Source: Octopus vulgaris
Lineage: Eukaryota
Direction: 5' to 3'
DNA length: 64,000 bases
Assembly: GCA_951406725.2 (NCBI GenBank)
Contig: OX597838.1
Location: 17,608,001 to 17,672,000, forward strand
Within the stretch, counting starts at the first letter, position 1; each line of letters opens with the position of its first letter. Below are positions 31,001 to 64,000 of the stretch, one piece after another. Under the pieces are notes generated by a model. It was not told where the DNA came from and made no database searches. It saw only the letters and a program-made list of their open reading frames with translations. A program made the translations under genes and the position numbers.

Positions 31001-34000
31001 AAACCAAACATGAAATGAATATATGTGTTTCTTTACTGCCCACAAGGGGCTAAACATAGAGGGGACAAACAAGGACAGACAAACGGATTAAGTCGATTAC
31101 ATCGACCCCAGTGCGTATCTGGTACTTAATTTATCGACCCCGAGAGGATGAAAAGCAAAGTCGACCTCGGCGGAATTTGAACTCAGAACGCAACGACACG
31201 CAATACCGCTAAGCATTTCGCCCGAGACAGCTCGCCGAGACAGCAAAAAGGAACGACGTTTAACTTGTTTTCTATCATTCTCATCATACTCATACCTATC
31301 GAAACACCTTTGGTTGGTACATACAACAAGTGGCGAGGTCCCCTCGTTGTTGCAAGTGATCATAAATTGGCGGGATTTTGCCGATGTTGTTTAGGTTGAG
31401 ACAGCCATGTCATCTTTAGTGTAAATGTTTACGTGGAAAGAATTCCAGATCTTACCATTTCTACAGATGACAGTTATTGACAAGACGGGTGACAGTATTT
31501 GACTCACACCTTTCTTGTATGAGAAAGCATAACTAATATTTATACCTTGAATATGAAATATAGCTTATTATTTTTTAAGAAAAGACAAACACAGAATCAT
31601 CTCCCTTCTCTCTCTCTCTCTCTCTCTCTCTCTCTCTCTCTCTCTCTCTGTCACACACACACACATACACACACACACATACACACACACACACACACAC
31701 ACACATATATATATATGTATAATTATTGGACTTACTTTGAAATGTGGTGGGTCGAATTTTATTCTTTGAGTCAGTGTTTATGCCACATCGTTCGACTTGT
31801 AGACGATAAACAAGAGCAGGGAGTAGGGCTTCGAATTCTGTCTTTAGGAATGTCTGGTTTGGTCTTTTGGAAAAGAGTTTTAAAAAACTGTCCAATGGTA
31901 CACACTGCAATATATACATATATACATGCACATAGATAGATGGATAGATAGACAGATAAATAGATAGATAGATAGATAGATAGATAGATAGATAGATAGA
32001 TAGATAGATAGATAGATAGACAGATAGATAGATAGATAGATAGATAGACAGAGAGACAGACAGACAGAAAGACAGATAGACACATATATACATACATATA
32101 TACATAAAAATATACATACATACATTTATATATATATATATATATATATATATATATATATATATATATATATATATATATATATATATATATATATATA
32201 TATATATATATATATATATATATATATATATATATATATTATTGGTGAATTGAAGAAATGGAGCTGAACGAAGATTGAACAGAAATCGTTTTATTTCATT
32301 CTACACGTGTTTCGAAAGGCACAATTTACCAATTGTGCCTTTCGAAACACGTGTAGAATGAAATAAAACGATTTCTGTTCAATCTTCGTTCAGCTCCATT
32401 TCTTCAATTCACCAATAATATTAAAATTCAATTATCCGCACCAACGCACGGTTGCAACACCATATGGTTGTACCTCCAACCGTGCTGTCTTCTGCTGTGA
32501 TTTTTGCTACCAAGGTATCGGTTAAACTTTTGATTAATCTGCTACAAGATTATTCATCTTTCTATTTCACATAATATATATATATATATATATATATACA
32601 TACATATATATATATATATATATATATATATATATATATATATATATATCGTTTAGAGATTTTAGAACTAGCTATTTTGCTCATCATATAATGTGTGGGA
32701 GGGTGTGTGTGTAAATTCCAACTATATTTTTTTAATTTTGTAATAGATTTATTCAACAACCAAACCGGTTTCAACAATTCTTCCATTATCTGTGGCATAA
32801 ATAAATAAATACAGGCTTTAACAAAGTTTAAAGCTACAAGATAAAATTCGGAAAAGCATGTTTAAACGATGAAATTTTCAAACGTTCAAATGTTCACAGA
32901 AATTTCAATGAGTTTCACAGAGATAATAATACAAGTTGAAATGTTCCATGAAGATCATAAATATATGATATATGATATATGATATATATATATATATATA
33001 TATATATATATATATATATATATATATATATATACACTTGCATATACATGTAGCTATATACATGCAAGTATATATAAATATAAATGAGTGTGTAAGTGTG
33101 TGTGTAAGTGTGTGTGTGTGTGTAAGTAATAATCCTTACTCTTTTACTTGTTTCAGTCATTTGACTGCGGCCATGCTGGAGCACCGCCTTTAGTCGAGCA
33201 AATCGACCCCAGGACTTATTCTTTGTAAGCCCAGTACTTATTCTATCGGTCCCTTTTGCCGAACCGCTAAGTTACGAGGACGTAAAGACACCAGCATCGG
33301 TTGTCAAGCGATGTTGGGGGGACAAACAGACACACAAACATATACACATACATACATACATACATACATACATACATACATACATATATATATATATATA
33401 TATATATATATATATATATATATATATATATATATATAATATATATATACGACGGGCGTCTTTCAGTTTCCGTCTACCAAATCCACTCACAAGGCTTTGG
33501 TCGCCCCGAGGCCATAGCAGAAGAGACTTGCCCAAGGTTTCCACACAGTGGGACTGAACCCGGAACCATGTGGTTGGTACGCAAGCTACTTACCACACAG
33601 CCACTCCTGCGCCTATGGATGAACTTTAAAAATCCTTTAATGCTTCGCTACGCGCGTTTCCACAGATCACGTCTTAAGAGTATGGTCCGTATTCCTGAGA
33701 TCATTACAGTACAATTCGTAGTATCCATGGACATCGGAGTGATCATGTTCATGCATTCATTTCTTCGGGAAATATGGCTTTAACGTATGTCTAACTAACG
33801 GTTGTTTACCAATTTTGACCAATGAAAAGGTTGATTAGTGTATGTGAGCATTTCTGAGTGTATTTGGTCTGGAGGGGCGGAAGGTGATAGAGAGGAAGGA
33901 AGGAATGGTAGTTAATCAGTTTGTAGTGGATGGAGGTGGTGAGAGTGGGGTGATGAATGCTGACCGAAATGTCAAGAAAGGAGACAGATGTGTCCAGAGA

Positions 34001-37000
34001 TAGATCAAGAGAAGTGGAGGGAGGGATGGAAAGATTTGACAAAGGAGAGGAAGGAGTCTAGATGTTCGCGGGAGAGTGAGGTCGCACCGATACAGTCATC
34101 AACATAACGGCCGTATAGTTCGGGAGTGGGGATCATGGCCACTCCCGAGACCTGCTGGTAGAAACCACCCTGCGAATGAGAAGCAGTTGAGTGAGAGGAC
34201 AAGTTCGGCCAGACGAACGAGTGTGGACGAGTGTCAGGTTGGGGTTTGGGCCGAAGGTAAGGAAATGTTGGAGTAAATATATATATATATATATATTCGT
34301 TTTTCGTTGAGTTCTACGTCTAGTTGTGGTGTCCTGTACTCACGTATATATATTTATATATGCATGTAGATGTCGGTACGTACATATATGTTTGTATGTA
34401 TGCATATATTTTATTTATTACACTATATATATATATATATATATATATATATATATATATATATATTTATATATATATATATATATATATATATATATAT
34501 GTATGTATGTATGTATGTATGTATGTATGTATGTATGTATGTATGTATATGTATACATATACATTTATACCTCCATGTATATATGTGTGTGTGTGCATAT
34601 GAATGTATTCATATATCTATGTATAGAGGAGTTAATACTCATTCCCTTCCATATCAGCCTTTAAACTCCCTCCCTCTTCTCAGATTGGTGAGATTGATGC
34701 TGCTGATACCCAGCCTGAACATCTGGAGGTCAAAATATTGGTCCCGGTCTCAAATTTCGAAAAGCTCTGTCAATCAGAATCCGGCTGAACTTTTGGTCGT
34801 GATAAAAAAATATAGTATAACTACGACCATCCTATCTTTATTCGGACAGAATAGGCCTCAGAGAATATAATTCAATGAAACCTTTTTCAACCAATCAATG
34901 ACGTGTATTCAGCTGAATAAAATTACTGCCGTTGTTTGTCAACAAGAACTTCCGGCGGTGTATTTTTCGTTTGTCACTATTATTTACGACATCGTTTGTG
35001 CGTTTGTACTGGATTTTAAGGTTATAGGGTTAGGGTTTTTGGGTTAGGGTTGTCATAAATAACAGTGACAATCAAAATATACACCGCCAGAAGTACTTGT
35101 TGACAAACAACAGCAGTAATTTTATTCAGCTAAATACACATCATTGATTGGTTGAAATTACCGAAATATGAGAACTTTAACGTGAAATAACTTCCTAAAT
35201 ATAAGCTTTTCTCAAAAATGCTAAGAGTAAAAGATGTTTTGTATGACACGTTCCACCAGTGTCCGAAGTTTGAAAGTGTTTAGTTACAAAACATTATTTT
35301 TTAAATCTGTAGGTCAAAAGGTAAAGATCCCCGCACTCTAATTCTCCCTCTATATTTTTGGGGCCATGTCTTTCTTCTTTCCCTCTCTCCTGTCTTAGCA
35401 ATGATATTTCTCCCTCTCTTTTTTTTTTCTATTACTGCTTATATTTCTGTATTTGCCCGCAATACTTCCTTTTCACTCTGACCACATTCCACCAAATCCA
35501 AGCCCTCTTTATAACATTTTGTCCACCTCTTTTTCTTTTTTTTTTTTTTACTTGTTTCAGTCCTTTGACTGCGGCCATGCTGGAACACCGCCTTTAATCG
35601 AGCAACTCGACCCCGGGACTTATTCTTTTGTAAGCCCAGTACTTATTCTATCGGTCTCTTTTGCCGAACCGCTAGTAACGGGGACATTTACACACCAGCA
35701 CCGGTTGTCAAGCAATGCTAGGGGGACAAACACAGACACACAAACACACACACGCATATATATATATATACATATATACGACGGGCTTCTTTCAGTTTCC
35801 GTCTACCAAATCCACTCACAAGGCATTGGTCGGCCCGAGGCTATAGTAGAAGACACTTGCCCAAGATGCCACGCAGTGGGACTGAACCCTGAACCATGTG
35901 GTTGGTAAACAAGCTACTCTTACCACACAGCCACTCCTGCGCCTCTGTCAACACAACCACTACTTTTGTCTTCAGCGCCCCGGAAAGAGAGAAACTAACC
36001 AGCAAAACAAATGGGCACCTGACGAGTGAAATTGATACAGCTAATACCCAGCCTGAATATTTAAAAGTCAAAATATTGGTCACAGTTTCAAATTTCAAGA
36101 ATTTCGGTAAATCTGAAAAAAAAAGTGAACTTTTGACTACGATATAACCACAACTAATTTCCGCTCTGTAAACAGCCATAAACTGTTTTTCTCTGGCATT
36201 AACTAGTAACTAACAGTTCACTGGATGAACTGTACTACTTAAGGGAGGTTTAGTTGTGTTATTATTTGAACGTAGGTCAGTTTTGTTTGAATAAGTCAAT
36301 GGTTAAGTATTCCAACTGTGACCATGCAGTCTTTTAATATATCCAGAACTTTATAATCGAATGTACACTCTTTTACTCTTTTACTTGTTTCAGTCATTTG
36401 ACTGGAGCATCGCCTTTAGTCGAGCAACTCGACCCCGGGACTTATTTTTTGTTAGCCCAGTACTTATTCTATCGGTCTCTTTTGCCGAACCGCTAAGTGA
36501 CGGGGACATAAACACACCAGCATCGGTTGTCAAGCAATTCTAGGGGAACAGACACAGACACACAAACATACACGCACACACATATATATATATATATATA
36601 TATACGATATATACGATGGGCCTCCCTCAGTTCCCGTCTACCAAATCCACCCTCAAGGTCCCGGTCGGCTCGAGGCCACAGTAGAAGACACTTGCCCAAG
36701 GTGCCACGCAGTGGGACCGAACCCGGAACCATGCGGTTGGTAAGCAAGCCACCTACCACACAGCCACTCCTGCGCCTATGTGTCCAGTTTTGTTTCTCTT
36801 CCTTTTTTTTTTTTTTGAAGATGACTATGTAATATGAAGATGTTGCTACTATTTCTAGCTACCTGGGAGTGGTGTCTTTTCCTTTTTTCATATTTTTTAT
36901 TCATATTTTGGGGGGTTTGCTAGATGTCTTAGGAGCTAAAATAATATATAGTATTTAAATTTTCTTCATATGTGAAATATTTTGAAAATTATGATAAATC

Positions 37001-63214: not shown

Positions 63215-64000
63215 TAATTTTACTCTGCTATGTATTGAGTACCTTATTTACTGTGGTTAACCCCGAATCAACCCGGGACCTACATATATATATATATATA
63301 TATATATAAAGGGTAAAGACCCCCTTCGGTCATGAATGACCATGGGATTGCACCTAGAAAGTTGCCCTCCTAGACACAAGTCCGGGCAAGGTTGTTTATG
63401 GAAGATCAGCAGTCGCCCATGCATACCAGCCTCCCCTCTCCAAGCCACCAGTGTTATCCAAGGGAAAGACAAAGGTCGATACAGATTGGCACCTGTGAGG
63501 TCGCAACTCATTTCTAAAGCTGAGTGAACTGGAGCAACGTGAAATAAAGTGCCTTGCTCAAGAACACAACACGCAGCCCGGTCCGGGATTCGAGCTCACA
63601 ACCTCACGATCGTAAGCTCGACGCTCTAACCACTGAGCCATGCGTCTTTCCTATATATATATATAGGAAAAAAGCAACAAGAATGGATCAATATATCGGT
63701 ACAATTGTTTCGTACGAGGACATCTTTAATAAAGCTACAATTGTACGAAAGAATTGTACTGATATATTGATCCATTCTTGTTGCTTTTTTCCTATTTGTA
63801 ATCACCCCACTTTGTCGTATGGTTAACACCATATAGATTTCCGGTGCATCCTAGTTAAGTACCATATTCATGTGAATTCATTAGAACTCACTTGAATCTC
63901 AATTGCTTAAACCTATATATATATATATATAATGTATGTGGTGTAATTTGAGGAGTACATGCAGCACTTAAATTAAGTACCAGCTGCGTACTGGTGGTCG

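Follow-up and report, generated by a model that had tools for sequence, protein, structure and literature searches.

The stretch of Octopus vulgaris DNA analysed here (assembly GCA_951406725.2, contig OX597838.1, positions 17608001-17672000; 64,000 nucleotides, referred to below as the window and numbered from its first letter) contains eight short inserts lying beside (TA)n tracts, E1 to E8 (Table 1). An earlier note, made from the letters of the sequence alone, had read them as one diverse class of non-autonomous derivatives of Penelope-like elements (PLEs), most of which carry hammerhead ribozyme motifs and fold back on themselves. In this work the inserts were followed through the 2.8 Gb genome assembly.

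Inserts and neighbouring features of the window

Table 1. Inserts and related features in the window (clade names follow motifs)
Feature	Position	Strand	Structure
E1, Hydra-type PLE 3' end, head-to-head pair	32236..32571		short-end arm 32236-32326 (-); long-end arm 32331-32571 (+); tail 32422-32571
Reverse transcriptase (RT) fragment of the Neptune-type PLE family that has E5 as its 3' end	33830..34270	-	broken: one frameshift, stops
E2, solo 3' end without inverted partner	39836..40050	-	minimal hammerhead fold, U4C core at 39968; homologous to E5-type end
E3, piece of ~460 bp non-coding tandem unit, retrozyme-like	40069..40322		inverted pair and tail
E4, Hydra-type pseudo-long terminal repeat (pLTR) end	42691..42869		inverted pair and tail; hammerhead 3' half only; family core U4C
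E5, solo 3' end of Neptune-type PLE	50707..50860	-	minimal hammerhead fold, A6U core at 50829
E6, copy of 616-644 bp non-coding tandem unit, retrozyme-like	55650..56264		long-end arm 55650-55855 (-); short-end arm 55852-56264 (+)
Complete type I hammerhead in E6	56062..56174	+	core at 56067, long loop II, predicted cut after 56169
Second copy of the E2 family, with 80% identity to E2	56284..56471	-	deletion runs through hammerhead; not in the earlier note
E7, Hydra-type PLE 3' end	63084..63283		near-symmetric palindrome 63084-63214 and tail to 63283
Complete type I hammerhead, minus arm of E7	63098..63154	-	core at 63145; U-U at stem II base; predicted cut after 63107
E8, Hydra-type PLE 3' end	63663..63913		inverted pair, tail 63796-63913; hammerhead 3' half only

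No two of the eight inserts matched each other in BLAST at E<0.01, and their description as mostly unrelated in sequence was correct. So was the recognition of six of them as near-perfect inverted repeats: the arms measure 41-122 bp at 91-100% identity (91/91 in E1, 40/44 in E3, 38/41 in E4, 122/122 in E6, previously placed at 55734, 64/64 in E7 and 51/53 in E8), the exceptions being E2 and E5. The six fold-backs are longer than had been supposed, as a one-sided tail of about 70-150 bp, which reaches a second (TA)n tract, had been missed. Their true ends lie at about 32571, 40322, 42869, 55650, 63283 and 63913, with (TA)n on both sides of every one. E2 directly adjoins E3 (39836-40322), and the second E2-family copy directly adjoins E6 (55650-56471); the neighbours share (TA)n tracts, which points to repeated use of one target.

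Since some arms are 100% identical, one could ask whether the palindromes are assembly or read chimeras. We rejected this extremely improbable explanation on account of the diverged arms in several pairs (40/44, 38/41), the fixed one-sided tail found in all of them, and the two families that never fold back.

Elsewhere in the window, two exons of a zinc transporter of the ZIP family (Pfam Zip) lie on the minus strand at 14963-15244 and 18624-18956; a candidate first exon with a signal peptide, at ~39300-39670, was not confirmed. Three near-identical inverted-repeat units, with ~150-180 bp arms and (TA)n between them, occupy 51818-52547. Positions 9692-11361 (-), 29302-29865 (-), 7901-8275 (+) and 14528-14824 (+) hold what we take to be long interspersed nuclear element (LINE) RT fragments and a mariner-like transposase fragment.

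Parent families of the inserts

Genome copy numbers given below are counts of exact-pattern matches; they are lower bounds in which the two arms of a pair are counted separately, and the control gave 0 in each case. The copies examined were the first 30 matches listed for each family (all 8 for E4), together with loci chosen for long spacing. Clade names (Hydra-type, Neptune-type) are a reading of motifs against Craig et al. (2021, PMC8557442), and comparisons with this and the other papers cited refer to the parts of their texts consulted.

E1 (1,534 matches) was found to be the end of a 3624-bp tandem unit carrying an intact 899-codon frame with RT and C-terminal GIY-YIG endonuclease (EN), and E8 (211 matches) flanks related, broken frames of 777-839 codons, with 47% identity to the E1 protein over 244 residues. 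A single RT and GIY-YIG open reading frame (ORF) is contiguous with the terminal repeat in these two families and in E5 (see below), and part of one in two others: E7 (6,025 matches) lies in locus L241 downstream of a Hydra-type endonuclease end and a ~3.5 kb CA/TA-rich simple-repeat 3' region, and E4 (8 matches) lies in locus L232 upstream of a Hydra-type RT start. The endonuclease end was seen only in L241, the long E7 pairs consisting mostly of simple-repeat sequence and nested LINEs. The ~3.5 kb of mixed CA/TA repeat between endonuclease end and hammerhead recurs at several loci (L241:591-4320, -; also L240, L243 and L244); such an element could spread microsatellite-like DNA. Translations of the E1, E8 and E7 parents share the marks of the Hydra clade, namely DKT, an RW(K) motif (here with L or R after RW), no CCHH, CxxC and CxH in the endonuclease, and a (TA)n target. 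The E8 parent has a CxCX5C linker; that of the E1 parent is degenerate, and for E4 and E7 none was seen. Judged by these sequences, E1, E4, E7 and E8 are 5'-truncated 3' ends of Hydra-type PLEs.

The published EN+ PLEs of the Hydra clade, including Hydra-1_Obim (PMC8557442), are alike in the DKT and YRDD motifs of the RT, in a C-terminal GIY-YIG without CCHH and in CxxC with CxH; they also resemble the elements described here in the (TA)n target, a hammerhead at the 3' end whose stem II is often flanked by one unpaired base on either side, an inverted 5'-truncated copy and a one-sided tail. The supplement of that paper has an octopus member of the clade with (TA)n targets and hammerheads of this form. 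On the other hand, the tail is about 70-160 bp here and 30-40 bp in the Hydra clade, the E1 unit of 3.6 kb exceeds the size of under 3 kb given for the clade, and the E7 parent differs by its simple-repeat 3' region. The hammerhead of Hydra-1_Obim, compared by eye, is none of our eight.

E3 and E6 (140 and 452 matches) are of a different kind. In E6, units of 616-644 bp follow one another in arrays, of which the longest listed has 13, and no PLE coding sequence matched them; E3 has ~460 bp units, found as dimers only, whose hammerhead lies upstream of the piece present in the window and is absent from the window copy. Tandem units that are non-coding and have a hammerhead in every repeat were found for these two families and not for E1, E4, E5, E7 or E8, and the term retrozyme-like, which had been extended to all the inserts, is appropriate only for E3 and E6. 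As far as their sequence shows, both fit the non-LTR retrozymes of animals, which likewise consist of AT-rich tandem units that are non-coding and contain a single type I hammerhead (PMC7229834; bioRxiv 10.64898/2026.07.22.740005). Their units are longer (about 460 and 616-644 bp) than the about 220-390 bp of retrozymes, and, unlike these, they carry the PLE signature of an inverted copy and two ends. Because this insertion signature is the same as that of the Hydra-type families, E3 and E6 probably use Hydra-type proteins in trans. Retrozymes were treated as non-autonomous PLE derivatives in the 2026 preprint (bioRxiv 10.64898/2026.07.22.740005).

The RT fragment of the window, rightly recognized before as a PLE sequence, contains YVDD and is Neptune-type; it gave no match to the Hydra-type proteins in tblastn and belongs to the family of E5, which forms no fold-backs. 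This family is abundant (150 scored of 2,457 genome candidates) and has in locus L321 an intact frame with DKG, a CX2-5CxxC linker and a CCHH endonuclease, Neptune marks that are common to Nematis. E5 (12,086 matches) lies downstream of a Neptune-type ORF in 3/30 RT loci and has matches in 11/11 loci with long frames; Pfam gave RVT_1 at 1.4e-7 for its parent. Neptune-type PLEs (motifs per PMC8557442) are similar in DKG, a CX4CxxC linker, a CCHH GIY-YIG and a minimal hammerhead at the 3' end; the E5 parent differs from them in its core, CUGUNGA, and its assignment to Neptune as against Nematis is by motif only. E2 (8,760 matches) is 70% identical over 132 nt to the 3' end of this family and is likely a sister of the E5-type end. 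Among 60 E2 or E2-like loci, PLE ORF matches were weak or unrelated, with one locus (L319) ambiguous, and none could be tied to E2. The sequence beside the RT fragment, at 33617-33830 (-), contains a palindromic GAAAC..GTA half (at 33660) and matched no other RT locus.

The earlier note was right on the PLE origin, the hammerhead halves, the (TA)n targets and the inverted arrangement. A single class of non-autonomous elements was not borne out, as five of the eight inserts (E1, E4, E5, E7 and E8) are truncated ends of protein-coding PLE families. The inserts are insertions of a known kind and not a new class; inverted truncated copies, tails and a (TA)n bias were reported for PLEs in 2021 (PMC8557442). 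Short, inverted and TA-flanked sequences might also be taken for miniature inverted-repeat transposable elements, with inverted repeats at their termini, of a DNA transposon that targets TA. This origin is hardly conceivable for arms that are asymmetric, variable in length and in centre, and that run into RT/GIY-YIG frames, and it was rejected because fixed symmetric terminal inverted repeats were not found and the repeats are contiguous with RT ORFs.

Geometry of the inverted pairs

Among the matches listed, an inverted partner within 1.5 kb was present for 17/30 of E1, 14/30 of E3, 5/8 of E4, 14/30 of E6, 25/30 of E7 and 13/30 of E8, and for 0/30 of both E2 and E5. Two 3' ends occur in each of the six fold-back families and a single one in E2 and E5; in all six, a tandem pLTR arrangement goes together with an adjacent inverted 5'-truncated copy and a one-sided tail. 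Spacing between arms varies from tens of bases to >5 kb. Minimal hammerheads of truncated PLEs, paired on opposite strands 100-700 bp apart, were described previously (PMC4209133). In one of the loci (L012:1525-1884), ~350 bp of unrelated sequence separates two E1 arms, and in another (L032:4689-7091) a different PLE, with a Zn-finger linker and GIY-YIG, forms a 1037-bp inverted pair beside an E1 tandem.

For a closer analysis, 55 distinct junctions lying within 25 nt of direct joining were collected (32 of E1, 10 of E8 and 13 of E7), identical junctions being counted once; pairs with foreign spacers and 7 junctions of E6, whose ends are hidden by the tandem reference, stand outside this set. 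One long and one short end were joined in 55/55 junctions. In 25/55 the short-end arm reaches >10 nt further 5' than the long-end arm, so that the arms are not nested, and in 8 the arms are nearly disjoint. An overlap of 1-7 nt occurs in 35/55. No arm started at the hammerhead cut site (0/55), a biased test, as the search pattern spanned the hammerhead on one arm. Arms are more alike within a pair than between pairs (in E1, identical in 7/14 as compared with 7/182), and the E7 junctions have a hot spot, recurring in three subfamilies, where a 4-nt palindrome coincides with the first base of stem I.

In our opinion it is probable that eight repeat families each left a 3' end, truncated on its 5' side, in (TA)n tracts of the window, that five of these families are joined elsewhere in the genome to PLE RT or endonuclease coding sequence and the other three were likely moved by PLEs, and that the fold-backs probably arose from two cDNAs primed on opposite strands and joined head to head. 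The PLE protein would nick both strands of (TA)n, and one cDNA would be primed from the far site and one from the near site of the same RNA. This step is suggested by the Anolis Poseidon element PAc (Frangieh et al. 2024, PMC11167929), which also has two RT start sites bounding the tail and AT-rich targets, and whose protein nicks and extends both strands. PAc differs in belonging to another clade and in that its hammerhead overlaps the ORF start; the text consulted gives no inverted-pair model. Both cDNAs would then stall early, and their 3' ends would anneal through 1-7 nt of microhomology, leaving a head-to-head pair with a one-sided tail. Neptune-type ends (E2, E5) possess a single 3' end and are inserted solo.

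An alternative is that a single cDNA, after snapping back on its own 3' end, is copied, and that the endonuclease then trims the second arm to the short end. The close match of arms within pairs agrees with it, as do the mostly symmetric E7 junctions with their hot spot on the palindrome, and the tail was indeed ascribed to EN-mediated resolution by Craig et al. (PMC8557442). However, snap-back of a single cDNA requires the short arm to be nested in the long one, which is not the case in 25/55 junctions, and in 8 the arms are nearly disjoint; at least 25 junctions thus need two cDNAs, and we regard snap-back as unlikely.

The earlier reading, a dedicated non-autonomous palindromic class that amplifies as such and acts through ribozyme cleavage and double-stranded RNA, would account for the non-coding units E3 and E6, for the modal ~130 bp palindrome of E7 at many loci, and for motifs in excess of shuffled sequence (see below). 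It is nevertheless quite improbable, since the junctions vary from copy to copy, arm spacing extends from tens of bases to >5 kb, and the same E7 junction is found in three subfamilies, in which the two arms have changed together; in addition, five families are contiguous with PLE ORFs, and 4/8 window copies are devoid of the first half of the core.

Several points weigh against priming by two cDNAs and against the family assignments as we give them. The priming model is built on geometry and on in vitro data from another clade. In E7, 8 of 13 junctions are symmetric and only 1 is non-nested, a pattern for which snap-back accounts just as well. The likeness of arms within a pair is what one would expect if a single RNA had been read twice, but also if one arm had been copied from its partner. 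In the loci examined, E2, E3 and E6 could be tied to no autonomous partner. Finally, a Pfam search of the Hydra-type proteins returned no family, so the clade names rest on motifs; a PDB search run beside it gave nothing useful. The origin of inverted insertions, like the role of the PLE hammerhead, was called unresolved in PMC8557442, and no paper on PLE inverted pairs formed by twin priming or a related mechanism appeared among the literature matches listed, as judged by titles.

Hammerhead cores and their possible role

In each family the hammerhead is the ordinary pLTR motif and lies close to the 3' end. In the window its GAAAC..GTH half occurs in 7/8 inserts, as was noticed before, and is absent from E3 (at 40069). 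The upstream CTGAnGA-like box with a paired stem II, attributed earlier to several inserts, fared less well: a full type I hammerhead (CUGANGA, stems I and II, GAAAC..GUH) is present in 2/8 copies, at 56067 (+) and 63145 (-), two more have a changed core (U4C at 39968 and A6U at 50829, both minus), and the CUGANGA half is missing from the other four. E1, E4 and E8 keep the 3' half only and E3 neither; E1 is without CUGANGA because both of its arms begin within stem II. CTGAAGA is kept in 24/30 E1 copies, and family copies of E1, E3, E6, E7 and E8 show all the features of a type I hammerhead (CUGANGA, GAAA, NUH, stems I-III), which E2 (U4C), E4 (U4C) and E5 (A6U) do not. An unpaired base flanks stem II on each side in E3, E6 and E7.

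A descriptor search of the window was compared with block dinucleotide shuffles. Strict and changed-core hammerheads both exceeded chance, with 0 in 60/60 shuffles, and a looser GAAAC-N0-14-GTH pattern was found 99 times against 63 +/- 7. The bare GAAAC-palindrome-GTH half, taken alone, was not enriched in the window (10 against 6.5 +/- 2.7 in 100 shuffles). Covariation of stems, also expected, was seen: 203 strict matches in 333 loci, chosen by motif and overlap, fell into 26 sequence classes with different paired stems, with 0 matches in 5 shuffles. No hammerhead family was among the 150 Rfam matches listed of 332. About ten further hammerhead classes turned up by chance in flanking DNA (loci L053, L127, L130, L192, L217, L248, L259, L263, L273, L276, L318 and L331), which indicates that there are many more hammerhead families in the genome. 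The minimal hammerheads of metazoan PLEs are similar in numbering thousands per genome, in being mostly single truncated copies and in a palindromic stem III (Cervera and De la Pena 2014, PMC4209133).

Self-cleavage sites, proposed for these inserts in the earlier note, may exist in at most 2/8 copies. The E6 hammerhead taken alone is predicted to form a three-way junction, but in the whole E6 copy the long duplex would prevail; in a read-through transcript of the E7 palindrome, a predicted long hairpin (-108 kcal/mol) displaces the hammerhead fold. PLE minimal hammerheads cleave poorly in vitro even as dimers (PMC4209133), and that of Poseidon is dispensable for insertion in vitro (PMC11167929). 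On these grounds, common self-cleavage from the window inserts appears unlikely. Most fold-back copies would be dead on arrival and not self-cleaving, since the core is either cut off or buried in a hairpin.

A separate problem is the A6U core of E5. Position 6 is U in 28/30 copies; all 30 agree in C3, U4, G5, G8, A9 and three bases of stem I, and position 7 takes four bases. Further conserved blocks lie downstream of the core. The A6U core of E5 gave 15,730 exact matches, including, by motif print, 9/11 of the long-frame loci; a strict core with the E5 loop or a 3-nt loop gave 5,112, nearly all listed ones being from other subfamilies. Such conservation of the fold could reflect shared descent or protein binding. 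An A6C change leaves low hammerhead activity (PMC3088659). The text of PMC4209133 consulted has no mention of A6U in a large family with ORFs and gives U3-A8 as the core variant, and our literature search, which did not extend to subscription papers, Repbase and supplements, found no relevant title on an A6U core. We would tentatively propose, as something possible rather than probable, that the Neptune-type A6U fold, in which both stems are constant, is kept as a protein-recognition element and not as a cutter (or else is a new active variant), and that insertions of the Hydra type are the trace of a mechanism with two nicks and two cDNAs by which non-coding retrozyme units are moved as well.

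In this genome, motif scans will give too high a number of active ribozymes, as most copies are truncated, core-changed or hairpin-buried. What seems worth following is the A6U family and the junction geometry. The octopus genome provides young families whose frames are intact, a natural A6U variant in very high copy number, junctions whose geometry speaks against pure snap-back, and two retrozyme-like units that bear a Hydra-type insertion signature. If our tentative proposal is true, both the role of the PLE hammerhead and the origin of inverted pairs would become testable with young natural families.

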